Shown here in pieces: positions 15,512 to 38,845 of a DNA stretch of 64,000 nucleotides. The position numbers and the translations under genes were made by a program. The notes below the pieces were generated by a model. The model searched no databases. It had not been told where the DNA came from and saw only the letters and a program-made list of their open reading frames with translations. The stretch's first letter is position 1, and each line of letters opens with the position of its first letter. This stretch comes from a marine bacterium AO1-C (GTDB taxonomy: Bacteria; Bacteroidota; Bacteroidia; Cytophagales; Microscillaceae), in assembly GCA_001890965.1 (NCBI GenBank), contig MLAY01000008.1, positions 552,341-616,340 of the forward strand, read 5' to 3'.

Positions 15512-16246
15512 ATGAAAATTTACTCAGTAATTAAAAAAGGGGAATTGCACCCGGTATATTGTGAAGATTTTTTGATCAGTACTTATGTAGGCGAAAGTTA
15601 TTATATGGGGGCTGTGTTGGATGGTTGTTCGTCGGGAGAAGACTCTCACTTTGCTTCGGCTTTGATGGGGAAGTTGCTCAAAAAAATTAGTAAAGATATT
15701 TCTCAACAAGAGCGTTTGTTGTTTGAAAACCCTCCACTGAGTGCCGAAAAAATAGCGGTCAAAATGCTCAAAAAGATGTTTTGGGAGTTACGTGATGCTC
15801 GTAAACACCTGGGATTGACCAATGTAGAAATGTTGTCTACGTTGATCTTGATGGTGTATGATGAAAATGAAAAACAGGCATTTATCATTGCCATTGGCGA
15901 TGGTATGGTAGCTATAGATGGCAAAGTCACCGAAATTGACCAGGATAATATGCCCGATTATATGGCTTACCACCTAAATCATAGTTTCGACCAGTGGTTT
16001 CAGAAACAAGAGCATATTTATCGGGTTGATCAGCCTAAGGAAATTAGTATTGCTACGGATGGAGTAGATACTTTTCGAACCCATAAAACAGATAATCCAG
16101 CTGATTTTAGTCCGATTGATTTTTTATTACTGGACAATTCACTGGAAAACACCCAGAACATGCTTACCCGTAAAGCCAATATTTTGCATAAAAAATACGG
16201 CTATTTGCCTGCTGATGATGTAAGTGTTATTCGGGTCAAGTTTTAA
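15512..16246 (+). CDS. PP2C-family (PP2C_2-like) serine/threonine phosphatase
   Basis: HPVYCEDF (CQD-like) N-terminal motif, VLDGCSSGEDSHFAS, IAIGDGMV and ATDGV aspartate-containing motifs. ATG at 15512 is preferred over the upstream TTG. Confidence 0.65.
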   Translation: MKIYSVIKKGELHPVYCEDFLISTYVGESYYMGAVLDGCSSGEDSHFASALMGKLLKKISKDISQQERLLFENPPLSAEKIAVKMLKKMFWELRDARKHLGLTNVEMLSTLILMVYDENEKQAFIIAIGDGMVAIDGKVTEIDQDNMPDYMAYHLNHSFDQWFQKQEHIYRVDQPKEISIATDGVDTFRTHKTDNPADFSPIDFLLLDNSLENTQNMLTRKANILHKKYGYLPADDVSVIRVKF

Positions 16247-16378
16247 GCAGCTCATCATATATTGTTCAATTGTTTTATTGCTGATTCCTTCAACCAAGCG
16301 CAGCACAGCGGGGTTTACCAAGTATTACAGACTTAGCGAAACAGTCTCAAAAAAACTCAACAATTTAATCACCTAACA

Positions 16379-22068: not shown

Positions 22069-22121
22069 ATAAAATACGTATTGTATTGACTAGACGCGAC
22101 TTATTTGTGTAAAGCAAACCA

Positions 22122-22158
22122 TCAAAAAAAGCCTATTTCTCGTAAGAAACAGGCCCTT
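22122..22158 (-). terminator. Terminator hairpin copy (gcctatttc-tcgtaa-gaaacaggc) downstream of thioredoxin paralog 3
   Basis: Same hairpin-plus-A-run unit as at 19465-19500, with one mismatch in the stem. Confidence 0.5.
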
Positions 22159-22178
22159 AAATATTGGTTGATTAAGTA

Positions 22179-23366
22179 TTATAACTTCGCATTGATTTTC
22201 TTTAGCAAGGCCTGTGCTCCTCCTGGACTTCCCCCTATTTTTTTGGACAAAGCAATAGATTCTTCCGCTACTTTTTTGGCTTCCTGATAACGCTTCAATT
22301 TATATAATAAGCGCGCTTGGGTACTGGTATTATACCAAGTCTTTTTTAGCTTCACCGATTTTTCGGCCCACACCAATGCTTTTTCCAGTTTTTGAGGATC
22401 ATTCGTAATTAAACTATACCTGGCCGCCATACCGCCTAAATCCTGAGAACCATTGCAATAATTATCATAATACTTGCAGACATACCGAAAAGCTTTTTCT
22501 TTATCTTTGTCAAGATAAAAGAACCAAAAATCTGCTTTAGTCAAGAGCTTTTCAACGTCTCTCTTTTGAACAAATACTTTTCTCAATCTTCGCTTCAATG
22601 AATCTAATTGGGCCTCACTTTTATCTTTAGAAAACGCTACTTTTTTCATGTCCTCTTCTAACACCTTTTCGATATAATTTTTCACGTTCTCTTTTTTCTT
22701 AGCCACTTGCTCAAACTTTGCTTGGTTTTTTAAGACATATTCAAAAGCTACTGCTGAAGGTTTTTCCACATATTGACTTATAAATTCCCAACCTTTGGTG
22801 GTGGCCCATTTGTCTTTACCCAGTTGGTTCAAGTATAGTGTAACGGGTTCAGTAATATCCTCGAAGGCAGTTTTCAAAGTCTTGATGTATTTCTCCAGGA
22901 ACTCATTGCTTTTTTCTCCTTTCTCAAAACGGCGTTGTAAAGTAAAAACCTGAGTTTCAGGGTTCAAGGCGTCTGCAGTCAGTTTCAGTAATATGTCAGC
23001 TGGCGCAGCCCCTCCAATTTTATGAACTATTTGGCCTTGGGGGCTAAAATATAGCAAGGTAGGATATGCACTTATCTTGTATTTTTTAGCAAAAGCAGGC
23101 CCTTCTCCCTTTTCTGTATTCACCTTATAAGACACAAAATGCTTGTTGAAAAAATCGCCTACTTTTTTTTGAGGAAAGACTTTTTTGGATTGCCACTGAC
23201 AGGGGCCACACCAAACAGTGTAGGCATCTACAAAAATGTACTTGTTTTCAGCTTTGGCTTTGGCTTTTATTTCCGTCCAGGTGCCTTTTTCAAACTTAAT
23301 CCCTTGAGCAATCGTGGTATTGGCAAGCCAACCTATCAGTATTAATGTATAGAATGTAACTTTCAT
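22179..23366 (-). CDS. Thioredoxin-family protein; paralog 3 of 4
   Basis: AYTVWCGPCQWQSKK motif. Same architecture as the others. Confidence 0.75.
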   Translation of the reverse strand: MKVTFYTLILIGWLANTTIAQGIKFEKGTWTEIKAKAKAENKYIFVDAYTVWCGPCQWQSKKVFPQKKVGDFFNKHFVSYKVNTEKGEGPAFAKKYKISAYPTLLYFSPQGQIVHKIGGAAPADILLKLTADALNPETQVFTLQRRFEKGEKSNEFLEKYIKTLKTAFEDITEPVTLYLNQLGKDKWATTKGWEFISQYVEKPSAVAFEYVLKNQAKFEQVAKKKENVKNYIEKVLEEDMKKVAFSKDKSEAQLDSLKRRLRKVFVQKRDVEKLLTKADFWFFYLDKDKEKAFRYVCKYYDNYCNGSQDLGGMAARYSLITNDPQKLEKALVWAEKSVKLKKTWYNTSTQARLLYKLKRYQEAKKVAEESIALSKKIGGSPGGAQALLKKINAKL

Positions 23367-23440
23367 CTTTTGAACAATTTAATTGATAACAACCTACACA
23401 GTTCTATACTTGATGGCTTTAAAAAATGGAGCCGATTTAT

Positions 23441-23475
23441 AAAAAAAGCCTGTCTCTCGTAAGAAACAGGCTCTT
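23441..23475 (-). terminator. Terminator hairpin copy (gcctgtctctc-gtaa-gaaacaggc) downstream of thioredoxin paralog 4
   Basis: Hairpin 23448-23471 with an aaaaaaa run on the plus strand. Confidence 0.55.
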
Positions 23476-23495
23476 AAATCTTGATTGATTAAGTA

Positions 23496-24668
23496 TTATA
23501 ATTTCGCATTGATTTTTTCTAACAATGCTTTGGTTTCTTTGGCATTTTGCTTGGCTTCTTTGGCCAAAGCTATAGATTCTTCAGCAACCTTTTTGGCTTC
23601 TTTGTAACGCTTAAGCTTAAATAACAAGTGGGCTTGAGTATCGGTATTGAACGATTTTTTCATCAATTTTACTGATTGTTGTGCCCAGCCTAAAGCCTTT
23701 TCTAAACGCTCAGTATCATTGTACTTTTTGTAATAGCCCCACGCAATGCTGTTAAACTCATAGGCATTGTCACAGTACTTATCAAAGTACTTGCAGGCAT
23801 ATTGCATGGCTTTTTCTTTGTCTCCAGCATAAAACATATATTCGGCCTTGGCAATGTGCTTGTCGGCATCTTTCCCAAATACATCCTTTAATTTCTTTTT
23901 GAAAGTAGTCAGCTGTTTTTTGTCTTTGGAACGAGCTACTCCGCGCATATCCATCATCAACACACGAGTGATATACTTCTCTACTTTTTCTTTGCTTTCA
24001 GCTGCTTTTTCAAACTTAGCCTGGTTTTTCATTACATACTCAAAAGCCTCTGCAGAAGACTTACGTACATACTTGCTGATAAACTTCCAACCTTCGGCAG
24101 TAGCCCATTTGTCTTTGCCCAATTGCGCCAGATACATGTCAGCAGGCTTGCTGAAATCCTCATAGGCACCTTCTAAAGCAGCAATATATTTTTGCAGAAA
24201 CTCATTACTTTTTTCTCCTTTTTCAAAACGACGCTTCAAAGTAAATACCTGGGTCTCGGGGTTTAGCGCATTGGCTGCAGCTTTTAGTAGTACCTTAGCA
24301 GGGTAGGCACCTACGGTTTTATGCACCATTTCGCCTTGGGGGTTAAAATATACCAAAGTAGGATAAGCTCTTACTTTGTATTTTTTTGCAAAGTCAACTC
24401 CTTCTCCTTTTTCCATATCCATTTTAAAAGAGATATAGTTTTTATTGAAAAAGTCACCTACTTCTTTTTGAGGGAATACTTTTTTGGATTGCCACTTACA
24501 AGGGCCACACCAGGTAGTATAGGCATCTACAAAAATGTGCTTGTTTTCGGCTTTGGCTTTAGCCTTAATTTCAGACCAGGAGCCTTTCTGAAAGGCAATT
24601 CCTTGAGCACCTGCGGTAAAGGCGGCTAGTAGTAAAAAAGCAAAGAGGGGTAAAAATTTATGCTTCAT
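23496..24668 (-). CDS. Thioredoxin-family protein; paralog 4 of 4
   Basis: AYTTWCGPCKWQSKK motif. ATG at 24668 (MKHKFLPLFAFLLLAAF, a signal peptide) is preferred over the longer ORF start at 24731. Confidence 0.75.
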   Translation of the reverse strand: MKHKFLPLFAFLLLAAFTAGAQGIAFQKGSWSEIKAKAKAENKHIFVDAYTTWCGPCKWQSKKVFPQKEVGDFFNKNYISFKMDMEKGEGVDFAKKYKVRAYPTLVYFNPQGEMVHKTVGAYPAKVLLKAAANALNPETQVFTLKRRFEKGEKSNEFLQKYIAALEGAYEDFSKPADMYLAQLGKDKWATAEGWKFISKYVRKSSAEAFEYVMKNQAKFEKAAESKEKVEKYITRVLMMDMRGVARSKDKKQLTTFKKKLKDVFGKDADKHIAKAEYMFYAGDKEKAMQYACKYFDKYCDNAYEFNSIAWGYYKKYNDTERLEKALGWAQQSVKLMKKSFNTDTQAHLLFKLKRYKEAKKVAEESIALAKEAKQNAKETKALLEKINAKL

Positions 24669-24866
24669 TGTGTATTGTAGTTTAAGGGTGATTGATTTAT
24701 GTTGAGTTAAATTAATGATTTTTTGCCTCAATGATGTTCTTCCAGCCCAAATAGTTGCTTTCTTCGCAAGAAATTATGCTTTCTTTAGTATTTAGCCTGC
24801 TTTTTTTTCTTAACCTTTTACCTTTGCATCCGGTTATTTAAGCAATCAAAATAAGTATACTGGTTT

Positions 24867-26492
24867 ATGACCAATGCCACTCAAATTCCTGTAAAAAAAA
24901 TCTTGATTTTGGCGCTTGTCTGTATCCTTGGCTTGTGGCTAAGTTGGCAAGTATATCCTATATTTTTATTGGTGGGATTTGTACCTATTTTAATGATAGA
25001 AACCGAAATCGTTCCTCAAAAGCGGGGTGGTTTTAAGTTTTGGCTGGCGTGCTTACTTATTATGCTTGGCTGGAATGCCCTGACTACCTGGTGGCTCGCC
25101 CTGGCTACTATACCAGGTGCTATAGCAGCCATTACATTGAATGGCCTATTTATGACGCTTCCTTTTGTTTGTTATAGAATCACTAAACAAGCACTTGGCA
25201 ATAATTATGGCTATTTCACTTTTGTGCTTTATTGGCTAAGCTTCGAGTACTTGCATTTACACTGGGACATCTCGTGGAGTTGGCTTACCCTAGGCAATGC
25301 CTTTGCCCAAACTACCAACTGGGTGCAATGGTACGAATATACTGGGGTGCTGGGTGGTTCGCTTTGGGTACTAATGCTTAATCTATTGGCTTATTTTATA
25401 GTCAAAAGCACATTGGGGCATAATCGTCGCACTTATGCTATTTACCTGGCACTGCTACTCTTTGTCCCCATCATTGCTTCTTATATCATCAAACCTTCTT
25501 TTGCTAATACAAAACGCCAAACGATAGAGGTAGCCCTGGTACAGCCCAATATTGATCCGCATACCCAAAAATTTCGCAATAACAAAGGCTTTATTCCTTA
25601 TCAGGTACAATTGAAACAGTTTCTCAAACAAGCAAAGTCAGTAGTAACTCCTCAAACCCAAATACTTCTTTTCCCCGAAACCGCTTTTGATGAACAATAC
25701 ATTGAGCCTCAAGTACCCAATTATGGTGTGTTCCAGCAGATCAATACCTTTCTGGCCAAAAATCCCCAACTGTCGCTTATGACAGGGGCCACCACAGCCA
25801 AGTTTTATGGTCGTTCGGCTACTACACCTACCGCACGTCGACACAAAACGCTGAATAAATATTATGATGTATTCAACACCGCTATTTGGCTAAGAGCAAA
25901 GCAAGCACCTGAATTTTATCATAAGTCGAAGCTGGTAGCTGGGGTAGAAACACTTCCTTATCCTGAAGTTTTTTCTATTTTTAATTCCTTATTGCTTGAC
26001 TTGGGAGGTACTACTGGATCGTATGGTACTCAAACAGAACGAAGTATTTTCCAGACACAAGATAGCACCTGGGTAGCTCCGTTGATTTGTTTTGAATCTT
26101 TGCATGGAGATTTTACTACGGCTTATGTAAATCAACAAGCCCAGCTCTTAACGGTAATTACCAATGATGGATGGTGGGGTGATACCGAGGGGCATCGTAA
26201 ACACTTTGCTTATACTCGATTGCGTGCCATAGAAACACGCCGAGCAATTGCTTTCTGTGCCAATACGGGTACTTCTGGATTTATAGACGTAACAGGTGAG
26301 ATACTACAAAAATCAGCTTATAATACACCAGCAGCATTGACGCAGAAAATACCAGTAAATCAAAAAATAACCATTTATACCCAATATGGCGACTACATCG
26401 GGCGACTTGCCGCCTTTTTGGCGGTGGGTTTACTACTTACTTTATTCGTTAAGCGAATTACAGGAGGTAAGACAGGAGCTTTGAAGAAATGA
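24867..26492 (+). CDS. lnt: Apolipoprotein N-acyltransferase
   Basis: N-terminal polytopic membrane region followed by a carbon-nitrogen hydrolase domain (LVQPNIDP, FPETAF, CFESLHGDF, ITNDGWWGDTEG) characteristic of Lnt. Confidence 0.8.
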   Translation: MTNATQIPVKKILILALVCILGLWLSWQVYPIFLLVGFVPILMIETEIVPQKRGGFKFWLACLLIMLGWNALTTWWLALATIPGAIAAITLNGLFMTLPFVCYRITKQALGNNYGYFTFVLYWLSFEYLHLHWDISWSWLTLGNAFAQTTNWVQWYEYTGVLGGSLWVLMLNLLAYFIVKSTLGHNRRTYAIYLALLLFVPIIASYIIKPSFANTKRQTIEVALVQPNIDPHTQKFRNNKGFIPYQVQLKQFLKQAKSVVTPQTQILLFPETAFDEQYIEPQVPNYGVFQQINTFLAKNPQLSLMTGATTAKFYGRSATTPTARRHKTLNKYYDVFNTAIWLRAKQAPEFYHKSKLVAGVETLPYPEVFSIFNSLLLDLGGTTGSYGTQTERSIFQTQDSTWVAPLICFESLHGDFTTAYVNQQAQLLTVITNDGWWGDTEGHRKHFAYTRLRAIETRRAIAFCANTGTSGFIDVTGEILQKSAYNTPAALTQKIPVNQKITIYTQYGDYIGRLAAFLAVGLLLTLFVKRITGGKTGALKK

Positions 26493-26658
26493 GTAGTTTG
26501 ACAATTTTAACATATTTCATTGTTGTATTACTACATTGTTAGTTCCTTCGGCTTCGTTCAGGACAGTACGTTTCGCAATGCAACACTAAAATATACTTGT
26601 TCAAAACTTATTTTTGCAAGCGCAAAAAGCCATTGGGCAACGAAACCATACTATCGAA

Positions 26659-27450
26659 ATGAATTTACAAAAGATTACCGAAGAGGTTATTCAAATTACC
26701 AAGGATGTAGGCTATTTCATCCGTACCGAACTCCAAAACTTTGACCGCTCCTTTATTGAGTATAAAGGTAAAAACGATTTAGTGTCTTATGTAGACAAAA
26801 AAGCAGAGCAAAGTCTCATTAAAGCATTACGAGAGGTGCTTCCTGAAGCAGGGTTTGTATCAGAAGAAGACCCACAAAATCATCAGCTCTCCGACAAAGA
26901 ATATCACTGGGTAATTGACCCGCTGGATGGTACTACTAACTTTTTACATGGATTACCAGTATTTGCCATCAGCATTGCTTTGATGCAGGGTAAAGAAATT
27001 GTAGCTGGAGTGGTATTCGAAATCAACCGTAGTGAATGCTTTTACGCCTGGAAAGATGGTGGAGCTTATCTGGATCAAGCCAAAATTCATGTTTCCCGCG
27101 CCGATTCATTGAGCGAAAGCCTATTGGCTACTGGGTTTCCTTACTACAACTTTGAAAAAATGGAGCAATATCTTACCATTTTGAATGGGTTTATGCAACA
27201 CACCCACGGACTTCGTCGCTTTGGCTCGGCGGCAGTAGATTTGGCCTACGTAGCTTGTGGACGTTTTGAAGGATTTTTTGAATATAACCTCAAGCCCTGG
27301 GATGTAGCCGCTGGTGCCTTATTGGTACAAGAAGCAGGAGGCATGGTAAGCACTTTCAATGGAGGTGATGATTACATTTTCGGCCGTGAAATCGTAGCAA
27401 GCGGACTCATTCACGACGAAATGCTGGAAGTAATCGGAAAACATTGGTAA
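26659..27450 (+). CDS. Inositol monophosphatase family protein (SuhB/IMPase-like)
   Basis: WVIDPLDGTTNFLHGLP metal-binding motif and the WDVAAG motif. ATG at 26659 is preferred over the upstream TTG. Confidence 0.8.
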   Translation: MNLQKITEEVIQITKDVGYFIRTELQNFDRSFIEYKGKNDLVSYVDKKAEQSLIKALREVLPEAGFVSEEDPQNHQLSDKEYHWVIDPLDGTTNFLHGLPVFAISIALMQGKEIVAGVVFEINRSECFYAWKDGGAYLDQAKIHVSRADSLSESLLATGFPYYNFEKMEQYLTILNGFMQHTHGLRRFGSAAVDLAYVACGRFEGFFEYNLKPWDVAAGALLVQEAGGMVSTFNGGDDYIFGREIVASGLIHDEMLEVIGKHW

Positions 27451-27468: not shown

Positions 27469-27819
27469 TTAGGAAGGTAATGGATAAGTCAGTTTCTTGT
27501 CCATTACTTTTTGGAATATTACCTTTTCCACGGCTGCCCAATCTTCATAACCTAAAAACTGTACAATCTTTTCTTGATTGATCGTATTGAGTTTTCCCAA
27601 ACATTTGGTAGTGGCTTCACTATTAAACAATCGTTTGAGGGTAGAAATGCTTATGTCGGTCATAGAAGATAAATTCCTAAAATCCTTATAGGTACAATCT
27701 TCAGGCTTTTGGGGTATTCTTTTGCAATAGGTAAGACCGCTGGCAGGTCTTCCCAGCAGTTCATTAGCCCTTTCCAAGATCATTAGGGCAATTGTTTTTT
27801 TTAAAATTCGGGTTAGCAT
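27469..27819 (-). CDS. Small HTH-like protein; paralog A of a pair that brackets the lanthipeptide biosynthetic genes
   Basis: Shares with 33125..33442 the blocks MILE(R/T)A, DFR(N/Y)LS..T.ISI(S/T)TLKRLFN(S/C)EA and QKI..FLGY..W..VE.VI. The S..T..RL block resembles an HTH recognition helix. Confidence 0.5.
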   Translation of the reverse strand: MLTRILKKTIALMILERANELLGRPASGLTYCKRIPQKPEDCTYKDFRNLSSMTDISISTLKRLFNSEATTKCLGKLNTINQEKIVQFLGYEDWAAVEKVIFQKVMDKKLTYPLPS

Positions 27820-28096
27820 ATCGGTATTGTTAGGTATAGACAACTGCAAACGCAGGCACTCTATAGGTTTACGAAATAGCTGCTCGAATTGAAGGAAATG
27901 GATCACTTATTTCTTAGAAGCTGTTTGAGTTTTAGTCATAGAAATTGTTATAGGTTATTTTGAGTCTAATTAAAGCTCATTTTTGATACATAGCCTGTAG
28001 CTACGTGCGAAAAAACAGCTAAAACGTAGGCCCAAAAGAGCCATCACAAAAATATTGAATAGAATTCGAACAGCTTCTGAGACATTCTCTCAACTC

Positions 28097-31000
28097 TTAA
28101 TCATTTTCAGCCATCACCTCTGGCTGATTCGTTTGTTTTTTCTTCGCTCTGGCAATAGTGGAACGATAATGCTGAAAAAGAAAGTCGTACAATACTACTT
28201 CGTGGATGCGTTGTTTAGAACGTAGTAATCGATTAACCATCATATGGATATAACTCGGCAACATGATATTTAGTTGACCTTGCGTTCCATTTGCCTCACA
28301 AATAGTGTGTATTTCTTGAATAATACCTTTCCAGGCTTGAGAACGTTGCTCAAAACAATCAAATGCGGCAGCCAGTGGGTGGGTATTATCGTATGAAGTC
28401 ACCATTATTTCTTGCACCTTAGTACGGGCTTCGCGATATTTTTGACTCAACTGTTTCTTGGCCGCTTTGTCGGTAAAGTTAAAATCTCGGGCAAAATTGT
28501 CTTTCATGTTTTCTATCAACTGCAAGCGCTGGTGCAAATCCAACCCAAAATCGGCCATCAATGCATCTGCACCTCTCAAAGCCAACAACCAACGAAATTC
28601 TTCTATTTCTTCGCCTTCGAATAAGCTTAAAATATTGGCTACTGCCTGACTATCATGGCAAAATAGTTTCTCTGAAAGCTCCATTGTGGCCGCTCCATAG
28701 CGTTCCACTTCGCGCACATAAGTATCGGTATGGAAGTTACTCACCAAACCAGTGCTCACGTAAGGTTCCAGGGCTTGATGCAGCAAGGCAATTACTTGGG
28801 CATAAAACAAGCCTTTACCCTTAAAACGCACTCTCAAATGGCTTTTTGGATCTATATAACGCAAGAAAAACCATTCTTCAATGATTTGTTCCGACAAAAG
28901 TTGATCGGCTACTGGTTTGATCACTTCGGTAATGATTTGATCAGCGATCTTAGCCCCACAATATATTTTTAGATAAAACCATTCTGACCCTAAAGCAAAT
29001 TCACGGGTAATTTGCTGGTCAGTAACCGTAAACAGGTTGGTATTAGTTGGCGACTGGACATCAGCCTGATTTGCATTGGTGGTATAATGAAAAGGCACCA
29101 CAATTTCATTGGTAAAGCTTCCTTCTGGGCCAGTGGCCAACAAGTTTTGTTCATGAAACAAAGATTCCTCTAAAACCGCCACATAAGAAGGTTTGTACAA
29201 GCTCAACAATATTTTGATGGGCCATAGCTGCGATAAATCCAATGGAAGTTTATTGTCTCCAAAAACAGCCGTTATATGTTGGGGTATTTGCAATCGGTCA
29301 CGCAGAGCCTGCATTTTTTCTACTTTGTGCGCATCGCTTGCATCTCTTACCTCCTTTAAATCTTCGGCTTTCACTTTCCATCGGGCCTTGCTCAAAATGG
29401 CTTTGCCCAAGGTTACTCTTGGCAACCAATCAGCATTTTCGAGATGCAGCCAACTCCAGGTTACACCATTGGCAAATTGGGTTTGCAAGTCACACAAGAA
29501 GTAGTATACTGGAACCGATTTCGTTTCATAATTATGAGCAGAACTTAAACGAGGGATTACTTCTTTGCCCAGTTTTTTAGAAAATAAAATCAAACGATCA
29601 TCGTGGATTTTCAGCCATAAATCAGCCAAAGCAATGGTATATGCTTCGTCTACTGCGGTAGTAGCCATTACTGGAATCTCATAATCGCGTAATACCGCTC
29701 GTTGCAATACATTGCCCAAACGAGCCATGGGCAAATGCACAATCTCTGCCAAAATTGCTTCAGGAAAGGCCGCTTGTTCTTTCTCAAAAGTATGTTTTAG
29801 CAAATCGGTGAGTTCTTCTCCTTCATAACAAAAACGCCCCAACATTTTACCTACTGATGCTCCGCCAGCTGAGGTAACCGCTACCTGAAACTTCCCCTGA
29901 TCTACCGCCTCGGGCGATGCAGCTAACACATTGCCTAAAAAGCTAAAAGTAGTTCCCAACTGAAGGTCTTCAGGGCGAGTAAATAGTTTTTCCAGTTCGT
30001 CTTTTGACAATTCTATATTGGCCTTGCCCTGGTGCAAAGCTTCATAATATTTTTCTTGTAAATAATGCGTCCAGGCACTCAGTTCTAAAGAAGCGTTAGA
30101 AGCTCGGCCATTTTTTGCCAATACCAAGTCATCTACCAAAGGAGTAAAGTCTGCTGAGTCTTGATGCTTAAGTGGATATCCCAGGCCAACTTCACTATCT
30201 AAGGCCTGTAGCAATGGTACGGCTTGTTGCTCATACTTTTGCCGAAAATCTACCTTAAAACTCTCTAAGTCTAGATTGGGAGCATTACCTTTGATCAAAA
30301 ATAGCCATTCTACTGCTTCAACTATTTCTTTGGCTACTTGTGGGTGCAAAGTATTTTGGATGGTAGCTTTTTGCATATCTACTTGAAACAGCTCTCCCGC
30401 CTTTATTTCTTGGCCTTTTGCATCCAATTGTTGCGCGAGTGCTTCGATTGCTTGCTGGATTTGGCGATAACGATCTACCTCTACTCCTAGCGGTTGGTGA
30501 TCAATCGCCTGCATTTGTTGAGCGATTTGCTCTAAAGCGTTTACCAATGTCCCCTGTGAAGGAATTGTTTGAAGAATTTCGATTAAACGCCCTAAAAACT
30601 CTTCTCCGGTAACCGTGGGTTCTAACTCACTTAACAATAACTGACTCTCAATGAGTGCCTCAATAAACTCACTGGCTTCTTCCAGGGTAGTTTCGTCGTC
30701 TACAAACAGGTTGGCCAAATCTATAATTTTGGCCCCTTGTTGGGCTTGCTGCAAGACTAACTCTATAAATTCTGAATTGTCTACATCTACCAAATGTAAA
30801 GTTCGTCCTTTTTCCTGCAAACGATATTCGAGGTAGCGTAAATAGTCTCCTACTTTATATAAGGTAGGATTGGGGTAAAATTTTAAATGAGGTTTGATTG
30901 CGGGCCTTTCGGCCAATTGAATTGCAAAATTGCCAAGAAACCCCATGTCGAGTCGGGTATGTCGTTGATTATGTTCGTTCTCGGCAAACTTTACCTGAGT

Positions 31001-31333
31001 TTGTTGCTCAAACTTACCTACCGATATTCCTGCCATCAACCCAAAAGGGGTAGGCCGAAACGACATACGATACAAGTACTTTAGAAATGATATTTTGAGC
31101 TTCTCTTCTTCTTTGGTGCTTTCTACGCCGTTTTTGAACCATTGCAGTAAAGCCTCTAGCAAACTAGGTGATGACAAATAAATTGCCTCTCGAATGATGG
31201 GGTTTTCTAATAGTTTTTCGATCGATATCGCTTCAACATCAGCAAAAGAATTAAAGGGTAAGAGTGGGGTTCTTAAAACGTAATAATCCAGTGGGCGAAT
31301 GTGGTATTTTTTAGGTTGGTTAGTTTGTTTCAT
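28097..31333 (-). CDS. Class I lanthipeptide dehydratase LanB (full-length, unsplit: glutamylation plus elimination domains)
   Basis: ~1080 aa. N-terminus (MKQTNQPKKYHIRPLDYYVLRTPLLPF) is the hallmark start of lantibiotic dehydratases. Its size is consistent with an N-terminal dehydratase domain plus a C-terminal SpaB_C-type elimination domain. It follows LanC after a 25-bp gap. Confidence 0.85.
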   Translation of the reverse strand: MKQTNQPKKYHIRPLDYYVLRTPLLPFNSFADVEAISIEKLLENPIIREAIYLSSPSLLEALLQWFKNGVESTKEEEKLKISFLKYLYRMSFRPTPFGLMAGISVGKFEQQTQVKFAENEHNQRHTRLDMGFLGNFAIQLAERPAIKPHLKFYPNPTLYKVGDYLRYLEYRLQEKGRTLHLVDVDNSEFIELVLQQAQQGAKIIDLANLFVDDETTLEEASEFIEALIESQLLLSELEPTVTGEEFLGRLIEILQTIPSQGTLVNALEQIAQQMQAIDHQPLGVEVDRYRQIQQAIEALAQQLDAKGQEIKAGELFQVDMQKATIQNTLHPQVAKEIVEAVEWLFLIKGNAPNLDLESFKVDFRQKYEQQAVPLLQALDSEVGLGYPLKHQDSADFTPLVDDLVLAKNGRASNASLELSAWTHYLQEKYYEALHQGKANIELSKDELEKLFTRPEDLQLGTTFSFLGNVLAASPEAVDQGKFQVAVTSAGGASVGKMLGRFCYEGEELTDLLKHTFEKEQAAFPEAILAEIVHLPMARLGNVLQRAVLRDYEIPVMATTAVDEAYTIALADLWLKIHDDRLILFSKKLGKEVIPRLSSAHNYETKSVPVYYFLCDLQTQFANGVTWSWLHLENADWLPRVTLGKAILSKARWKVKAEDLKEVRDASDAHKVEKMQALRDRLQIPQHITAVFGDNKLPLDLSQLWPIKILLSLYKPSYVAVLEESLFHEQNLLATGPEGSFTNEIVVPFHYTTNANQADVQSPTNTNLFTVTDQQITREFALGSEWFYLKIYCGAKIADQIITEVIKPVADQLLSEQIIEEWFFLRYIDPKSHLRVRFKGKGLFYAQVIALLHQALEPYVSTGLVSNFHTDTYVREVERYGAATMELSEKLFCHDSQAVANILSLFEGEEIEEFRWLLALRGADALMADFGLDLHQRLQLIENMKDNFARDFNFTDKAAKKQLSQKYREARTKVQEIMVTSYDNTHPLAAAFDCFEQRSQAWKGIIQEIHTICEANGTQGQLNIMLPSYIHMMVNRLLRSKQRIHEVVLYDFLFQHYRSTIARAKKKQTNQPEVMAEND

Positions 31334-31358
31334 TTGGTAAAGAATTAAGTCATCATTT

Positions 31359-32615
31359 CTAAGCAATATCAAGCAAAAAGGCTCGCTCCCAATCGGTATT
31401 ATTTTCGTTATCCAAGAAACCCAGCATTACCATTGCAATCCCGGCATAGCCTTCTAAGAAACTGTAATCTTCTACCCAGTAAGGCTCTTTGGTATCAGGA
31501 TTCACTTTCATTCGTTTGTAATGTTCTTGTGCTTCGTTTTCTTGGTATTGTGTTACCAATAGGTTTAGCCAATGATCAGCAGCTTGTTGAAAGGCTTCTT
31601 CTTGTGTTGCCTGGTACAACTTACGATACATGTGGGCTATGCCTCCACCGCCATGGCAAAAGCCTGCATCCATCAGATTATCTTGAGGACTAAGGTGTAC
31701 CCCCGCTTCCTGAGGAGTTGCTTTTTGGGTAGTTTGTAGCGCAATCGCAATGGCCTTTTGCTTCCATTGATCCTGATCTAGGGCTTTTGAGGCATGCATC
31801 AAGGCTACCACAATGCATAAATCTCCGTAACACCAAGCCAACCGACCTTGTCGCTCATTGGCGGCTCCTTCTATAATCGTCAGCGGAAAGCACTCTGGTT
31901 GGTCTTCAAGCTCTTGCTGCACTAGCCAGGTCACGCTTTGCTCCAGCAATGTTTTACTTACTTCGGGTAAAATTTCGTTTTGAAAAGCCTTAGCCAAAAA
32001 GCTAATAATTCCAGGAATGCCATGGGCTAGCCCCAGATTGTAGCGAACATGGTGTTGGTATTCTTCATCTATGGTAAAATGGTCTTGCCAATAAGTAAAT
32101 CCATTTTCTTTGATGGCAGTTTGGTCTAAAGAAGTAACAATTTGTTCTAGTTGTGTCCTTGCTGAATCTGCGTGAGGTAAACGCTCGAGGTAATAAATAC
32201 CTTTGCTCACTAAACCATACAGCGTATCATAATTTTTATGTTGGCTATTTTGTACCAACGATGCCTCTATCATATCATCTAAATCGCTCAACATTTCGGC
32301 ATCTTCAGGATCAAGAATTTCTATGTTTACCAAATGTTGTAGCAACCAGGCTGCCCCCAGGTATTTGCCTGCCATAGCTACCTCGGCATGGGCTATCTCG
32401 CTATTTACTTGCATAAACTCCTCCAACGCCTCCACAGCTCCCTGGGCAAACTTATCGGCTTGCGATGCATCAAATAAGCTTGCATAGGCATACAGTAATG
32501 ATTGGGCCGCGTGATAATTGCTAAACAGGTAAGGAGTAGTAGGCAATGGATGCTTCTCGAACTTATTGAGTAGTTTTTGGACGATGTTTTTTTGAAGCTC
32601 AGGGGAAGACCACAT
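31359..32615 (-). CDS. Lanthionine synthetase C-like cyclase LanC
   Basis: Zinc-ligand and catalytic motifs GLAHGIPGI, LAWCYGDLCI and GFCHGGGGIAHMY (GxAHG / WCxG / CHG). Confidence 0.85.
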   Translation of the reverse strand: MWSSPELQKNIVQKLLNKFEKHPLPTTPYLFSNYHAAQSLLYAYASLFDASQADKFAQGAVEALEEFMQVNSEIAHAEVAMAGKYLGAAWLLQHLVNIEILDPEDAEMLSDLDDMIEASLVQNSQHKNYDTLYGLVSKGIYYLERLPHADSARTQLEQIVTSLDQTAIKENGFTYWQDHFTIDEEYQHHVRYNLGLAHGIPGIISFLAKAFQNEILPEVSKTLLEQSVTWLVQQELEDQPECFPLTIIEGAANERQGRLAWCYGDLCIVVALMHASKALDQDQWKQKAIAIALQTTQKATPQEAGVHLSPQDNLMDAGFCHGGGGIAHMYRKLYQATQEEAFQQAADHWLNLLVTQYQENEAQEHYKRMKVNPDTKEPYWVEDYSFLEGYAGIAMVMLGFLDNENNTDWERAFLLDIA

Positions 32616-32699: not shown

Positions 32700-32924
32700 T
32701 TATACTGGGTAGTTAGATGGAGTTCTGCATTGTCTAGAGTCGTTGCAGGTAAACTGAGAAGCAGCACAAGGACCACCCATGCTACGGTCACAAGTCATGT
32801 CTTCTACACGAGTAAGATACTGACAAGCTTCTCCACCTTGAATAGTTTTCAGGTTCAAATCGTTTTGACCTTTGGTAAAATTCTTTAATGTACGTTTGTT
32901 TACTTTGAATTTGTTTTTGCTCAT
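32700..32924 (-). CDS. Lanthipeptide precursor peptide LanA (double-glycine leader, Cys/Ser/Thr-rich core)
   Basis: 74 aa. Leader MSKNKFKVNKRTLKNFTKGQNDLNLKTIQGG with an NDLNL (FNLD-like) box and a GG site. Predicted core EACQYLTRVEDMTCDRSMGGPCAASQFTCNDSRQCRTPSNYPV has 5 Cys and 8 Ser/Thr. Immediately upstream of LanC and LanB on the same strand. Confidence 0.7.
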   Translation of the reverse strand: MSKNKFKVNKRTLKNFTKGQNDLNLKTIQGGEACQYLTRVEDMTCDRSMGGPCAASQFTCNDSRQCRTPSNYPV

Positions 32925-33124: not shown

Positions 33125-33442
33125 TCAATCTTTCTTATCAATTAGATTATCAAGAATGACCCCTTCGACCTCGTCCCAGGTGGCATATCCTAAAAAATGA
33201 GCAATTTTTTGTTGGTTTTTGGCATTACAAAATCTTACTCCTTGAGCCTCACAGTTGAAGAGACGTTTGAGCGTAGTAATGCTAATCCCTGTAAGGTAAG
33301 ACAGGTATCGAAAATCGGCGTGTCGGCAAGTCTGCGTGTCGGTAGCTAATTTGGTTTGCTGTTCACAGAATGCTTGATTTTTTGCGGTAGCAGTTTCCAA
33401 AATCATTTGAGCCACTTGCTGTTTAAGGAGATGGTATAGCAT
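33125..33442 (-). CDS. Small HTH-like protein; paralog B, immediately upstream of the precursor gene
   Basis: See 27469..27819. 105 aa. Confidence 0.5.
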   Translation of the reverse strand: MLYHLLKQQVAQMILETATAKNQAFCEQQTKLATDTQTCRHADFRYLSYLTGISITTLKRLFNCEAQGVRFCNAKNQQKIAHFLGYATWDEVEGVILDNLIDKKD

Positions 33443-33730
33443 GATGTTTTGTGATTTATGATGAGAATATGCCTGACATATTCTTTTTTCATATGTTGTT
33501 TTACTTAACTATTTGTTACACTTATTATGATTTTAAGTCAGGGTCTTCGTTAGAAAGTTTGATAAAATTTTAATAAAAATATGGTATTTTATCTGGATAA
33601 GCTTGAGGATTGGCTTTTTTTATAGCAAATGGGGGTGGTGAACTAGCAACTTTTTAAAACGATGGATATTTTGATGTATCGGCTTGTTTAAGAAAACAGG
33701 AAAGGATGTTGGGGACTTGCCCCAACAAAA

Positions 33731-35041
33731 CTACTTCACCAAAACCCTTTTTTCCATCAACAATCGTTTCTCTACATCCCATACTTTCACCTGATAAGAG
33801 CCTTTAGGTAGCACCAAATAAGAAGGCTTATCTAGTTGCTTGAGGTGGATTTGGTCTATGGGCACTGCATTTTCAGCATCACTTGGTTTAAAAGCTTGCA
33901 CCAAACACTCTTGCTTGATATTCCACTTTTTAGGATCAACCTTGTAGTACTTTTTGGCGGTCCCCCAACTGAGCCAGGTTGGGCGTCCGTTTTTGAGTTG
34001 GGTACGGGGCAAAAAGACTTGCACATCTACGTAGTTTACAAACAAATTGCCCGTATCGGCTACCCAAGGTTTGCTTTGATACTCAAGCACAATGGGGCTA
34101 TTTTTTAACCAACCTTGTTTGATCACCTGACGATAATACACATGTTCATATTTTTTATGAAAACGCTCGGTCATCTCAGTTTGATCTATAGTAAAAGGGT
34201 TGATTCCGGTCAATTTGATGAACTCCTCGCCCATTTTTACCCAACTTTTCTTCTGGTGGTTTTCTTCTATATTCTGGATACCTCCATATACCAGCATCTT
34301 GGCTTCAGGATTTTTCTTAAGCACCTCCTGTAAGTGCATCGCTTGCTGTTTAGATCTTGAGGTACCTCGTTTGTTGGCCTCGTAAGGCAATACTTTAAAG
34401 CCTAGCTTGATGGCTTGGCGAATCAAGTTACTCATCATAGGTTCTAAAGTAAAATACCCCGAATTGGCCAATGGATAACCTCGTTGGTTCAGCAAAGTAT
34501 CTTTATGGCTCAATGTCTCGACCATCAAGAAACGAAAGCCTTGTTGGTATAAACCAGCTAATAGTGTCGCAGCAAAGGCTCGGTGCTGGCCCACATGGTG
34601 CGCTTCATTGATCATTATTACTTGCTCACGCTTGGCTCTTTGGAGAATGTAGTTTTTAGCATCAGGCACCTTTACTTGCTTACTATCCAGCGATTTGACT
34701 ACTATTTTCTTTCTACCCTCAATCATCAAGGCTTTGTCAAAATAGTAAAGTGCGCTATCATAATTCGTCACAAACGAATTGTAAAACCCTTGGTATTGGG
34801 CATAAAAACTCTTGGTATCAGGATCGGCATTGGCCACAAGGCTTTCGTTGGCTTTGAGCGCAACTACTGGCTTGAGATAATTAGGGTTAGAGCGATCTTG
34901 TATAGCCTCTCTCACTATACTATCTATTTTGCTCATGAGTTCGAACTGAGCAAATGCTTGTGTTTGAAAAAATAGTATTCCACAAAGGATACTACCTATC
35001 ACAAAAGCTTTTCCGGCGGATAATTTCGCAAATTTGATCAT
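33731..35041 (-). CDS. Secreted protein of uncertain function encoded inside the lanthipeptide operon (possible Tiki/TraB/erythromycin-esterase-like hydrolase)
   Basis: Signal peptide (GILFFQTQAFAQ). INEAHHVGQHR and VYGG segments weakly resemble the paired GxxH motifs of the Tiki/TraB/PrgY/ChaN superfamily. Assignment is tentative. Confidence 0.4.
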   Translation of the reverse strand: MIKFAKLSAGKAFVIGSILCGILFFQTQAFAQFELMSKIDSIVREAIQDRSNPNYLKPVVALKANESLVANADPDTKSFYAQYQGFYNSFVTNYDSALYYFDKALMIEGRKKIVVKSLDSKQVKVPDAKNYILQRAKREQVIMINEAHHVGQHRAFAATLLAGLYQQGFRFLMVETLSHKDTLLNQRGYPLANSGYFTLEPMMSNLIRQAIKLGFKVLPYEANKRGTSRSKQQAMHLQEVLKKNPEAKMLVYGGIQNIEENHQKKSWVKMGEEFIKLTGINPFTIDQTEMTERFHKKYEHVYYRQVIKQGWLKNSPIVLEYQSKPWVADTGNLFVNYVDVQVFLPRTQLKNGRPTWLSWGTAKKYYKVDPKKWNIKQECLVQAFKPSDAENAVPIDQIHLKQLDKPSYLVLPKGSYQVKVWDVEKRLLMEKRVLVK

Positions 35042-35343
35042 TACTTTAAAACAGTTTAAAATTTTAATGTTTTATCACTAATGGGGCTACCTCTTAGAAG
35101 AATGACTTTAATAGATAAGTATAAATTAGGAGAGACTTGTTAATTATGATTTATTGGGTGTACCTAAGAGATTAGTCTCCAGGTAACCTTACTTGAGAGA
35201 TAAAAAAAGTGGAGAGATTTTATGATTTGATTCGGGTAATAGGCTGGCTTTTAAGAAAATGTGCTGATAATAAAGCAAAAAAAATTGTAGGCAATTCACA
35301 TCATTGCCTACAACCTTTTATATCGTTACGAAAGCGAAAGGGC

Positions 35344-37539
35344 TTACCCTCCTAATTCTAACTGGTTTTTCACCAAGTCGTAGTACATACCTTTTTGGGC
35401 AGTAAGTTCTGCGTGAGTTCCTTGCTCTACCAGTTTTCCTTTCTCGAGTACAATGATTTGGTCAGCATTTTTTACCGTACTCAATCGGTGGGCAATCACT
35501 ACTGCGGTACGTCCCTTGAAGAACTCATTTAAGTTCTCCATAATGATCTTCTCATTGTTGGCATCCAGAGCCGAAGTAGCCTCATCAAAAAACAAAAATT
35601 CAGGGTTTTTATACACTGCCCGAGCAATCAAAATCCGTTGTTTTTGTCCACCACTTACCCCAATTCCATCCTGGCCAATTTTGGTGTTATAGCCCAAAGG
35701 CAAACCTTCAATAAACTCTTGAATGTTGGCCACTTGTACTGCCTGACGCAAACGCGCCTGATCTATGATTTCGTCACTTACTGCAATATTACGAGCAATG
35801 GTATCAGAGAAAATAAATCCATCTTGCATGACAGTACCACAACGCTCTCGCCACATACGACCATTGAGGTTATTCAACTGAATACCTTCAAGTTTAATAA
35901 CACCTTCTACCGTATCATAAAACTTAAGCAAGAGTTTCAGAAGCGTAGTTTTTCCACTACCACTGGTACCTACCACTGCGGTAATTTTCCCTTCAGGGAT
36001 GGTAAAAGAAACATCTTCTAAAACCTTAGGAGAATGAGGTCCTTCGTATTGAAAGGTAACATCTTCGAGGTGAATATTTTTACCTTCAGGCAAAATCGTA
36101 ATCTGAGGGGTTCCATCTTCTTCCTCGTTGTCTTTGTCATGAATTTCACCCAATCGCTCCAGACTTATCTTGGCATCCTGCATTTCATATACAAAGTTGA
36201 TCATTTGGCTAATAGGGCCATCCAACTGCCCAATAATAGACTGTACTGCCAACATCATACCCAGCGTCATAGAACCATTCACTACTGCGTAGGCTGCCGA
36301 AAACGTGATCAGAATGTTTTTACTTTGGTTGATAAATAAGCTTCCTGCCTGCTGTATTTGCTCCAAGGTTACACTCTTTACATTGATCTTAAACATTTTG
36401 GCCTGAATACGCTCCCATTCCCACCGCTTTTGTTTTTCACAGTTGTTTAGCTTAATCTCTTGCATACCATTAATCAAGTGAATCAAGCTACTTTGGTTAC
36501 GTGACATTTCCTGAAAACGCTTGTAATCCAGTTTTTTACGCCAGTTTAAGAATGCCAATACCCAGGCAATGTACAAGATACTTCCTACTAAAAATATCAA
36601 AAAGATATAGATATTGTAAAAGGCCAGAATGACCCCAAATACTATAAAGTTGAAGAAGGAGAATAGGATAGAAAGCGTGGAAGTACTCAGAAACTGCTCA
36701 ATGCGGTGGTGGTCGTTGATTCGTTGCAATAAATCTCCGATCATTTTGGTGTCGAAAAAGCCAATGGGGAGTTTCATCAACTTGATCAAGAAATCGGAAA
36801 TCAGTGAGATATTGATCCGGGTACTGAGATGTAGCAGTATCCACCGCCTTATAAAGTCCACTGCTGTTTGGCTAAAAAAGAGTACAAATTGGCCAATTAG
36901 CACAATGTAAATAAAATCCAGATTGCGGGTATTAATCCCGATATCTACTACCGATTGGGTAAGAAATGGGAAAATCATACTGAGCAAACTGCCCAACAAT
37001 AATCCCAAAAACAATTGGAATAAAAACTTACGATAACGCACCAAATACCCCAACAAAAAGCGCCAACTAGCCTTATTAATCTTTTCGTCAGTTTCTTTTT
37101 GATAAAACTCTGGGGTGGGTTCCATCAACATGGCTACCCCTTTGTCTTCGCCTCCTTCCCGAGTACTTGCCCAGTGTTTTAGAAATTGCTCTCGCTCATA
37201 TGTTACTAATCCTACTGCTGGGTCAGATACAAATACTTTCTTTTTTGTGACTTTATATACCACTACAAAGTGCTGTTGATTCCAGTGGGCAATAAAAGGC
37301 ACTGGAGCTTCATCGGCTAGTTGCTGGAAGGTAGTTTTTACACCAATAGTACGAAAACCAACTGCTTCGGCAGCATCGCTAATACCCAATAAAGAAACGC
37401 CTTCACGGGTAATATAGCTTTGCTCACGCAGGTATTGTAATGAATATTTTTTACCGTAATGTTCTGAAATAATTTTGACACATGAGGGGCCGCAGTCCAT
37501 CATGTCTAATTGTATATAGGAGGGAAATTTCTTCGCCAT
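35344..37539 (-). CDS. Peptidase C39 domain-containing ABC transporter (LanT/bacteriocin-processing exporter)
   Basis: N-terminal C39 motif MDCGPSC plus downstream His/Asp. Six-TM core. Walker A GTSGSGKTT, ABC signature LSGGQKQRILIARAV, Walker B LFFDEATSALD. Confidence 0.85.
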   Translation of the reverse strand: MAKKFPSYIQLDMMDCGPSCVKIISEHYGKKYSLQYLREQSYITREGVSLLGISDAAEAVGFRTIGVKTTFQQLADEAPVPFIAHWNQQHFVVVYKVTKKKVFVSDPAVGLVTYEREQFLKHWASTREGGEDKGVAMLMEPTPEFYQKETDEKINKASWRFLLGYLVRYRKFLFQLFLGLLLGSLLSMIFPFLTQSVVDIGINTRNLDFIYIVLIGQFVLFFSQTAVDFIRRWILLHLSTRINISLISDFLIKLMKLPIGFFDTKMIGDLLQRINDHHRIEQFLSTSTLSILFSFFNFIVFGVILAFYNIYIFLIFLVGSILYIAWVLAFLNWRKKLDYKRFQEMSRNQSSLIHLINGMQEIKLNNCEKQKRWEWERIQAKMFKINVKSVTLEQIQQAGSLFINQSKNILITFSAAYAVVNGSMTLGMMLAVQSIIGQLDGPISQMINFVYEMQDAKISLERLGEIHDKDNEEEDGTPQITILPEGKNIHLEDVTFQYEGPHSPKVLEDVSFTIPEGKITAVVGTSGSGKTTLLKLLLKFYDTVEGVIKLEGIQLNNLNGRMWRERCGTVMQDGFIFSDTIARNIAVSDEIIDQARLRQAVQVANIQEFIEGLPLGYNTKIGQDGIGVSGGQKQRILIARAVYKNPEFLFFDEATSALDANNEKIIMENLNEFFKGRTAVVIAHRLSTVKNADQIIVLEKGKLVEQGTHAELTAQKGMYYDLVKNQLELGG

Positions 37540-37822: not shown

Positions 37823-38845
37823 ATGATGAATTTTTCAAAACCTATTTTGGGAGGGTTATTGGCGATGTTGCTTGCTTTGAACGCCTGTAGCCCATCCAAC
37901 GAAAAAGTGGAGCCTGCCAACAAGGCCAAACCATTGCCCATAGCAAGTTCGGTAAGTCAACAGGCTGCCAGTTTGCAAAATGGCCTTACCAGTCATTTTC
38001 GCCAATGGCTCAACAGTAACGGTTATGGTAGTTATGATTTTGCTCGTTTAGGCCTCACTGGAGGAAGTTATGGAGGCAAACAAAGTAATAGTGATGCAGT
38101 AAATAACGAACCCGTAATTTTTATTCACGGCAACTCAGACAAAGCTTTTGGCTCGGCAAGTGGGCAAACTGGCTGGACTAGTTCTATCAGTTATTTTTTA
38201 CAAAATGGCTACAAACAATCTGAAGTGTATGCCATTACCTGGGGACCTGCCAGTGCCAGTTTGGCCGCTCAACAGTACCACTCTAAACCTTACATTGAAC
38301 GCATACGTGCTTTTATTCAAGCTGTGAAAGCTTACACTGGCAAAAACAAAGTAGACGTAGTAGCTCATTCTATGGGAGTTACATTGTGTCGTAAGGCCAT
38401 CAAAGGTGGTTCGGGGAGCGATTTACTCAATGGCGGCTCTTATAATCTGGGAGGTTCACTTACCAATAGTGTAGATACTTTTGTGGGTATTGCTGGGGCC
38501 AACTGGGGACTCACCAATTGTATAAGTTTGGCAGCGACTCCTACTTGTGGGTCTACCAATGGCTTTTATCCTGGTGCTTATGCTACATTTTTTGGTCCAG
38601 TAGGCTTATCAAACATTCTGAGCGATTTGAATAGCTCTAGTGGTTACGAGGGGCGATATGTGTATTCTATTTGGTCGAGTGCCGATCAGGTAGTGGGCTA
38701 CGGATGCATCGTATGGGGGCGCAATACTTGCAAAGTACCTGGGCAAGATGGACAAAAAAGTTTTTCTACACTGGGGCACTTTGGGGCAAAAGACAATACA
38801 GCCTACTATCAATTGCGTATGGTAAAACATCATCGCACCAATTAA
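37823..38845 (+). CDS. Secreted lipase/esterase, alpha/beta-hydrolase (lipase class 2-like)
   Basis: Lipobox LALNACS. Nucleophile elbow VVAHSMGV (GxSxG variant AHSMG, as in Bacillus LipA-like lipases). Confidence 0.65.
   Translation: MMNFSKPILGGLLAMLLALNACSPSNEKVEPANKAKPLPIASSVSQQAASLQNGLTSHFRQWLNSNGYGSYDFARLGLTGGSYGGKQSNSDAVNNEPVIFIHGNSDKAFGSASGQTGWTSSISYFLQNGYKQSEVYAITWGPASASLAAQQYHSKPYIERIRAFIQAVKAYTGKNKVDVVAHSMGVTLCRKAIKGGSGSDLLNGGSYNLGGSLTNSVDTFVGIAGANWGLTNCISLAATPTCGSTNGFYPGAYATFFGPVGLSNILSDLNSSSGYEGRYVYSIWSSADQVVGYGCIVWGRNTCKVPGQDGQKSFSTLGHFGAKDNTAYYQLRMVKHHRTN

Follow-up and report, generated by a model that had tools for sequence, protein, structure and literature searches.

Introduction

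Several well-studied proteins share the fold of the protein described here. In RRSP the catalytic set of two histidines and two glutamates consists of E3900, H3902, E3930 and H4030, the last of which is essential (PMC6254334), and in the numbering of EreC the set is E47, H50, E78 and H289, with R261 stabilizing the transition state; in Ere enzymes the replacement H289A cuts kcat about 1000-fold (PMC7979712). PrgY, a Tiki-like extracellular peptidase, is thought to degrade its producer's own pheromone outside the cell (PMC7117660). Tiki/TraB peptidases and an erythromycin-esterase-like family have also been noted in some branches of the graspetides, the ribosomally synthesized and post-translationally modified peptides (RiPPs) made by ATP-grasp enzymes, where a role in “modification or resistance” was proposed (Makarova et al., 2022, PMC8939145). 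Here we analyze BKI52_25215, a 436-residue protein encoded in a 64,000-nucleotide stretch of DNA (hereafter the window; contig MLAY01000008.1, positions 552,341 to 616,340) from marine bacterium AO1-C, an unclassified member of the Cytophagaceae (Cytophagales, Bacteroidota). Its gene, the target of this study, lies inside a lanthipeptide gene cluster.

The protein differs in several respects from each of its described counterparts. The haem-binding lipoprotein ChaN (PDB 2G5G; PF04187) is a single domain of about 290 residues, whereas the AO1-C protein is about 150 residues longer and has a TPR-like N-terminal domain and a C-terminal beta-sandwich; ChaN also has a lipoprotein signal and an iron-regulated/TonB-receptor context, whereas our protein has a signal peptidase I (SPase I) signal, no iron-uptake context and Asn in place of the second His. 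The erythromycin esterases (EreC, 6XCQ; the Bcr135/136-like proteins, 2QGM and 2RAD) are cytoplasmic, unlike the exported target, in which the putative counterpart of EreC H289 is Asn, the same change as in the engineered crystallization mutant EreC H289N. RRSP (5W6L), HopBA1 (5T09), Tiki and the PrgY/TraB peptidases gave no sequence-level match to it; PrgY and TraB are encoded on Gram-positive plasmids and reside in the membrane, RRSP and HopBA1 are effectors delivered by injection, and the H4030 that RRSP requires is missing. The genes of Makarova et al. (PMC8939145) share with ours the superfamily, ATP-grasp RiPP operons and double-glycine peptidases, but they belong to branch 2 and gammaproteobacterial cluster 575, whereas the target family is found with Bacteroidetes grasp-with-spasm and MvdC/D-like branches.

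We conclude that BKI52_25215 belongs to a known superfamily, of which it is a new and slightly degenerate representative. Its gene in AO1-C is an optional cassette of a mosaic RiPP island and, from the sequence around it, appears to be transcribed separately. As to function, we tentatively favor, at somewhat less than even confidence, an optional periplasmic, catalytically attenuated accessory that handles peptides and was recruited in a graspetide setting.

Results

Protein architecture and family

The features of the target gene are as follows.

33731 to 35041, minus strand: target coding sequence with an ATG start, encoding the 436-residue secreted Tiki/ChaN/Ere-superfamily protein BKI52_25215
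34949 to 35041, minus strand: predicted Sec/SPase I signal peptide, codons 1-31, cleavage between AFA and Q, read from the sequence
34598 to 34609, minus strand: motif 1, N145-E146-A147-H148, with the first Glu and first His, aligning to ChaN G-E-E-H
34517 to 34519, minus strand: E175, second Glu of the set, conserved in 180 of 181 sequences
34271 to 34282, minus strand: degenerate motif 2, G254-I-Q-N257, for which the family consensus is G-Y-x-H

The encoded protein is 100% identical to the NCBI hypothetical protein BKI52_25215 of marine bacterium AO1-C, and because 99 homologues were found in a large protein collection (down to E 1e-20) we regard the reading frame as a real gene. An earlier note on this DNA, made without database searches, described a 436-residue open reading frame (ORF) with a cleavable signal peptide, and that description stands. 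The N-terminus, MIKFAKLSAGKAFVIGSILCGILFFQTQAFA followed by QFEL, shows a basic n-region and then a hydrophobic core of 14 residues, with A-F-A preceding the Gln, and the Kyte-Doolittle mean over 10 residues peaks in this region at 2.5. A Gln at position +1 after cleavage fits the habit of Bacteroidetes. A comparable hydrophobic N-terminal stretch is present in 74 of 88 full-length relatives, while a lipobox-like motif occurs in five of the 88. The protein is thus predicted to be exported by way of a cleaved, SPase I-type signal.

An AlphaFold2 model built with the family alignment (predicted local distance difference test, 91.5; predicted template-modeling score, 0.89) comprises TPR-like helices (residues ~36-106), an alpha/beta core (~120-350) and a C-terminal beta-sandwich (~360-436). 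The core is an alpha/beta domain centered on a parallel beta-sheet, as in ChaN, Ere, RRSP and HopBA1. The target therefore encodes three domains behind an export signal, the central one adopting the Tiki/ChaN/erythromycin-esterase fold.

Family assignment by sequence came through the relatives of the protein. The protein itself had no Pfam or NCBIfam match at E 0.1-1, HlyD and coiled-coil families included, which agrees with the earlier statement that it is not of HlyD type, and searches of PDB sequences, whether by the protein alone or by a profile of 42 sequences, returned nothing meaningful. PF04187 (ChaN, Cofac_haem_bdg), on the other hand, was matched by 29 of the 42 aligned relatives at E ≤ 0.1 (best 4.5e-6); PF05139 (erythromycin esterase) was touched by only two of them. 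With these matches and the fold of the core, the earlier guess of a Tiki/TraB/erythromycin-esterase superfamily proved right, and the Pfam search proposed alongside it gave its answer for the relatives and not for the window protein. Comparison by hhalign with 25 canonical ChaN lipoproteins had a probability of just 2.2% with a register consistent over 175 columns, and comparison with one ChaN sequence likewise gave a consistent register at low probability; these alignments were used for motif correspondence only.

Scanning one-genome-per-species contigs with a query alignment of 10 sequences identified at least 507 genomic loci of the family, spread over Bacteroidota, Acidobacteriota, Planctomycetota, Armatimonadota, Gemmatimonadota, Proteobacteria and other phyla, with identities to the window protein of mostly 30-40%. 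A metagenome scan with the target protein alone returned one weak, irrelevant match. The family is large, uncharacterized, secreted and mostly stand-alone, and it keeps the 2His/2Glu catalytic set. Links to sigma factors were seen twice: family member P0073 (755 residues) was called as a fusion with sigma-70 region 2/4 domains and has Gln at the H257 position, and at locus L009 genes for extracytoplasmic function (ECF) sigma factors and a protein kinase adjoin the target homologue. These may reflect a signaling role in some lineages or else a gene-calling artefact.

The putative active site

How much of the catalytic set does the AO1-C protein retain? Conservation was counted in an alignment of 181 target-family sequences. 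Around the first motif, N145 is conserved in 180 of these, E146 in 179, H148 in 178 and R154 in all 181; further along, R229 is invariant (181) and G254 and H257 are found in 178 and 174, respectively. The first superfamily motif, (G)-E-x-H plus a Glu about 28 residues on, is present in the target, E175 lying 27 residues past H148 in a spacing comparable to that from H50 to E78 in EreC. The second, G-x-x-H (which holds H289 in EreC and H4030 in RRSP), is present in the family and absent from the window protein. In the hhalign register NEAH falls on ChaN GEEH, E175 on E90, and G254 to H257 on G237 to H240. The earlier note had singled out two segments as weakly recalling paired GxxH motifs. One, INEAHHVGQHR (residues 144-154), was well chosen, INEAHH being the first catalytic motif that aligns to GEEH of ChaN. 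The other, VYGG, exists (residues 251-254), but the motif that it enters is not intact, reading G254-I-Q-N257 where 174 of 181 sequences have His.

Asn257 was found only in the window protein, in P0002, the 60% relative encoded at locus L001, and in P0003, an 80% relative; the other exceptions at this position are one sequence with Gln and one with Ala. Conservation across the other 80 genomic homologues reaches at least 85% in 52 columns, about 45 of which are kept in the window protein, while position 257 is the sole fully conserved column at which the N257 clade deviates. The fold and the remainder of the pocket have thus been kept and one catalytic His has specifically been changed. In the model N257 comes just after core strand 248-253, and from its place in the motif order, its strand position and the low-probability profile alignment we infer that it corresponds to EreC H289 and RRSP H4030.

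Association with graspetide operons

When the neighbors of the family at 82 loci were clustered all against all, the only recurrent partner across lineages was an ATP-grasp RiPP operon; the remaining shared neighbors were generic MacB/FtsX permeases, histidine kinases, ABC transporters and lineage-specific synteny. The case nearest to AO1-C is L001, which holds the 60% orthologue at the same chromosomal site, its inositol phosphatase and apolipoprotein N-acyltransferase (LNT) being 92% and 81.5% identical, respectively, to those of the window. The order of the L001 operon is ATP-grasp maturase, 82-residue ORF, SPASM maturase, target, C39-VKOR fusion and orf105, a small gene also found beside the target in the window. 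Its grasp maturase scores 283 bits against TIGR04192 (cut-off 230) and its SPASM maturase 366 bits against TIGR04193 (cut-off 175); the target overlaps the SPASM gene by 29 nucleotides and the C39-VKOR gene starts at the base after the target stop. This operon is a Bacteroidetes grasp-with-spasm graspetide system.

Similar arrangements were found at three other loci. At L037 the grasp and SPASM genes are directly beside the target homologue in the same gene order as in L001, and at L045 they again adjoin the homologue, the grasp gene beginning 5 nucleotides past it. L032 has instead an MvdC/D-like ATP-grasp maturase together with a pair of TIGR04500-like maturation genes; the last of the pair runs 4 nucleotides into the target homologue. 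The four loci occupy four separate branches of a neighbor-joining tree. Since Tiki/TraB- and Ere-like genes have already been recorded with graspetides (PMC8939145), the association is of a known kind, extended here to a new family and new branches. In an attempt to match the target family with “cluster 23” of Makarova et al., the NEAHH motif was not found in their supplements (PMC8939145).

Some further features of these loci deserve mention. At L037 a canonical ChaN lipoprotein gene (3607-4479, minus strand; PF04187, 167 bits) is immediately downstream of and convergent with the target homologue, thus placing two Tiki-superfamily proteins side by side. At L045, 1.3 kb separate the target homologue and its grasp-with-spasm genes from a gene for a 587-residue LanC-like protein (14845-16608, minus strand). 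There is always an ORF of 68-82 residues between the ATP-grasp and SPASM genes (L001, 1007-1255; L037, 1073-1291; L045, 12293-12499), and it matches, by position alone, the “LPL family” of putative precursor chaperones (PMC8939145).

Could the target nevertheless be a bystander, that is, an ordinary periplasmic hydrolase or binder with a substrate unrelated to RiPPs, which happens to sit in a recombination hot spot for RiPP cassettes? We consider this less likely than a graspetide-linked accessory, although it is the most probable of the alternatives. The family is mostly stand-alone, in unrelated contexts and in many phyla, and 76 of the 82 loci have no RiPP genes nearby, so the general role of the family is not RiPP-specific; in the window the target is bounded by a terminator-like hairpin and long spacers, and in relatives its presence is independent of the lan genes. 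Other observations also weigh against a graspetide-linked accessory. The window has no ATP-grasp or SPASM gene, and tblastn at E 10 found no grasp, SPASM or C39-VKOR remnants in it; three close relatives (L092, L094 and L096) keep lan genes without the target; the equivalence of N257 and EreC H289 is drawn from the order of the motifs and from a profile alignment whose formal probability is low; and without its second His the protein may be inactive, considering the ~1000-fold effect of Ere H289A and the essential nature of RRSP H4030. What a bystander does not readily explain is that in L001, L032, L037 and L045 the homologue shares its strand with ATP-grasp RiPP genes and overlaps or directly adjoins them, four cases where about 0.2 within 5 kb in 82 loci would be expected by chance (our own rough estimate, which assumes about one maturase per 5-Mb genome), and that every known member of the N257 clade sits in the RiPP island.

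The lanthipeptide module and the mosaic island

In the window itself the target is surrounded by genes of a class I lanthipeptide.

37823 to 38845, plus strand: class-2 lipase gene, island boundary
35344 to 37539, minus strand: LanT-type exporter with an N-terminal C39 double-glycine peptidase domain
35279 to 35319, minus strand: terminator-like hairpin with a 17-pair stem and a run of T, separating the LanT stop from the target start
33434 to 35343, no strand: presence/absence block of the target gene and both spacers, from comparison with L094
33125 to 33442, minus strand: orf105, 105 residues, no family match
32700 to 32924, minus strand: precursor, 74 residues, with a double-glycine leader (LKTIQGG, then EAC) and a Cys/Ser/Thr-rich core
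31359 to 32615, minus strand: LanC cyclase
28097 to 31372, minus strand: LanB dehydratase, N- and C-terminal domains
27469 to 27906, minus strand: orf105 paralogue, 145 residues, 47% identical, closing the lan module
24867 to 27450, plus strand: inositol monophosphatase and LNT genes, island boundary

The earlier note placed the target between the exporter and the precursor gene, and the coordinates agree that it sits between the C39-ABC exporter and the precursor; left unmentioned was orf105, which intervenes between target and precursor. Spacers of about 300 bases are found on both sides of the target and, together with the hairpin after LanT, these make it look like a transcription unit of its own. 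At DNA level L094 and the window match as far as the end of LanT (stop at 35344) and once more from 33433 onward, with only 146 unrelated bases in between; the block carrying the target is therefore present or absent among relatives.

Only eight homologues of orf105 were found in a collection of 5.8 billion proteins (67-100% identity), and they mark the same chromosomal island with a shared flank of inositol-phosphatase, LNT and thioredoxin genes. Comparison of the island variants with a tblastn panel gave the following picture. L094/L095 has the lipase, LanT (93% identical to the window's), orf105, a 107-residue precursor, LanC and LanB (55%) and the orf105 paralogue, without the target. L092/L093 has an NlpC/P60 gene, a 193-residue ORF, orf105, a precursor (78%), LanC and LanB (78%), and lacks both LanT and the target. 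L096/L097, also without the target, has a 66-residue ORF, a 340-residue ORF, a C39-VKOR-thioredoxin fusion, orf105, a precursor (85%), LanC and LanB. L004/L005 has a target copy, orf105, the precursor, LanC and LanB. In this last variant homology of the target copy (80% relative) begins at residue 110, the first ~109 codons being absent; the 65 bases upstream are unrelated and have stops in all frames, and two independent assemblies break there (L004 1-70 and L005 1-48 are the ends of assemblies from different samples). A repeat or mobile element may have cut this copy. The target is thus absent from three of the five lanthipeptide-bearing variants of the same island, and a fourth has only a 5′-truncated copy.

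Does the target, then, serve the lanthipeptide cluster specifically, whether by conferring immunity or as a hydrolase that trims the leader or core in a second step? We find this improbable, even though the location of the gene between LanT and the precursor invites it. No LanI, LanFEG or LanP gene was detected in the window at 20-47 kb (Pfam/NCBIfam), the target would be exported to where the peptide goes, and members of its superfamily cleave or neutralize peptides. Identity of the target over shared columns is also higher between the window and L004, both of which are lan-linked, than between the window and L001 (75% vs. 63%), with the order reversed for orf105 (71% vs. 76%); this comparison of three sequences weakly suggests that the target protein diverges along with the RiPP module.

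Against these points, neither LanB nor LanC, nor the C39 domain or orf105, was found by tblastn in the 80 distant loci with their 10-kb flanks, and the gene tables of three long distant contigs show unrelated neighbors around the target homologue. Because lan-bearing L092, L094 (whose LanT is 93% identical) and L096 do without the target, it is not needed for that peptide in those relatives, and the copy in L004/L005 has lost its first ~109 codons. The protein has no homology to the LanP (subtilisin), LanI or LanFEG families (Pfam, NCBIfam), and one of its catalytic histidines is missing. The idea in the earlier note that the target serves the lanthipeptide operon is consequently not borne out: LanB and LanC accompany it at none of the 80 distant loci and most lan-bearing variants of the island lack it, so that synteny with them elsewhere, which that note had set beforehand as the test that could refute it, is not conserved. 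The leader-protease role that it also entertained is rejected as unnecessary, the double-glycine leader of the precursor and the C39 domain of LanT being sufficient for leader removal. That the target is a fixed part of the LANTHIPEPTIDE cluster is not supported; its place is that of an optional passenger in a mosaic island of peptide-antibiotic genes.

The island itself is highly variable. Between the lipase and the inositol-phosphatase/LNT genes, at least six different RiPP gene sets are present across close relatives, including two types of class I lanthipeptide module, whose LanB/LanC share 78% and 55% identity, respectively, with those of the window, and a grasp-with-spasm graspetide module, accompanied by either LanT or a C39-VKOR fusion. 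The combination in L094 of a LanT 93% identical to that of the window with LanB/LanC only 55% identical points to cassette shuffling. The one gene constant across all variants is orf105, and since its 47%-identical paralogue comes directly past LanB, an orf105-like gene stands at each end of the lan genes, as is also the case in L092, L094 and L096. Neither of the two in the window has a family match; they could be recombination points or cassette-specific regulators. The C39-VKOR fusion (L001, 3532-5226; L096, 1988-3652, plus a thioredoxin domain) replaces the ABC-type LanT beside orf105 in some island variants, which suggests leader cleavage coupled to periplasmic disulfide formation, and in L096 it accompanies a lanthipeptide module with no ABC exporter in view. 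Outside the island proper, the window has three tandem paralogues of ~400 residues with N-terminal thioredoxin-like domains (20872 to 24731, minus strand), which are kept beside LNT in relatives.

Evolutionary rate

Between the window and L001 the non-synonymous divergence (dN) is 0.32 for the target, 0.045 for the inositol phosphatase, 0.118 for LNT and 0.145 for orf105; only dN was compared between genes because the synonymous divergence (dS) is saturated for all. The target is intact and constrained, yet it is evolving 2.2-7 times faster than its neighbors. Might it be a decaying remnant, functionless in AO1-C since it lost its graspetide partners and its catalytic His? The H257N change, the loss or truncation of the gene in several relatives and its fast divergence could be read in that way, but we think it very unlikely, as the frame is full-length and intact, about 45 of the 52 highly conserved residues are unchanged and dN falls far short of the saturated dS. 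In addition, N257 is common to the window, L001 and P0003, and therefore the change predates their split and was retained. Least likely of all, to a degree that we would hardly entertain it, is a ChaN-like haem- or iron-uptake-binding protein, given that the target has no lipobox (and only five of 88 family members have one), that the genes next to it in the window include neither a TonB receptor nor iron genes, that the family conserves a hydrolase-type Glu/His/Arg set and that the window protein reaches no PF04187 score.

Discussion

If the target is, as we tentatively favor, a peptide-handling accessory recruited in a graspetide setting, how might it act? After Sec export it would meet the exported, leader-less modified peptide in the periplasm, where it might neutralize or trim that peptide for producer self-protection or turnover in the manner of PrgY/TraB; PrgY may offer the closest functional analogy. 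Slow hydrolysis of esters or peptides by water activated at the retained H148-E175 pair is conceivable in AO1-C, as the Ere equivalent of this pair has been proposed to activate water (PMC6254334, PMC7979712). Because the second His has been lost, binding or sequestration may dominate. Graspetides contain side-chain ester and amide cross-links, which would make an Ere-type hydrolase a chemically sensible partner for them. The role was probably acquired in the graspetide setting, and any tie to the neighboring lanthipeptide is speculative.

A more elaborate and distinctly speculative scenario, to which we attach little probability, is that the N257 clade represents a “half-dead” Tiki/Ere hydrolase turned periplasmic binder, giving immunity to or buffering the producer's own peptide, within a modular island in which orf105-like genes are the recombination sites for exchanging cassettes of different classes (class I lanthipeptide, grasp-with-spasm graspetide), while a regulator, a double-glycine peptidase and an accessory protein stay common to all.

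The mosaic RiPP island is a more interesting by-product of this analysis than the target protein. For genome mining there is a lesson in that location inside a RiPP cluster did not place the target in the lanthipeptide pathway, and that it was the comparison of the island among close relatives which settled the matter. Since the His-to-Asn replacement has arisen naturally, at a position on which Ere and RRSP are known to depend, it gives a convenient means of telling catalysis and binding apart. We know of no characterized product from the large Bacteroidetes branch of graspetides. If the graspetide link is functional, this family of ~430-residue proteins would be a candidate for the self-protection or a maturation step of Bacteroidetes graspetides.

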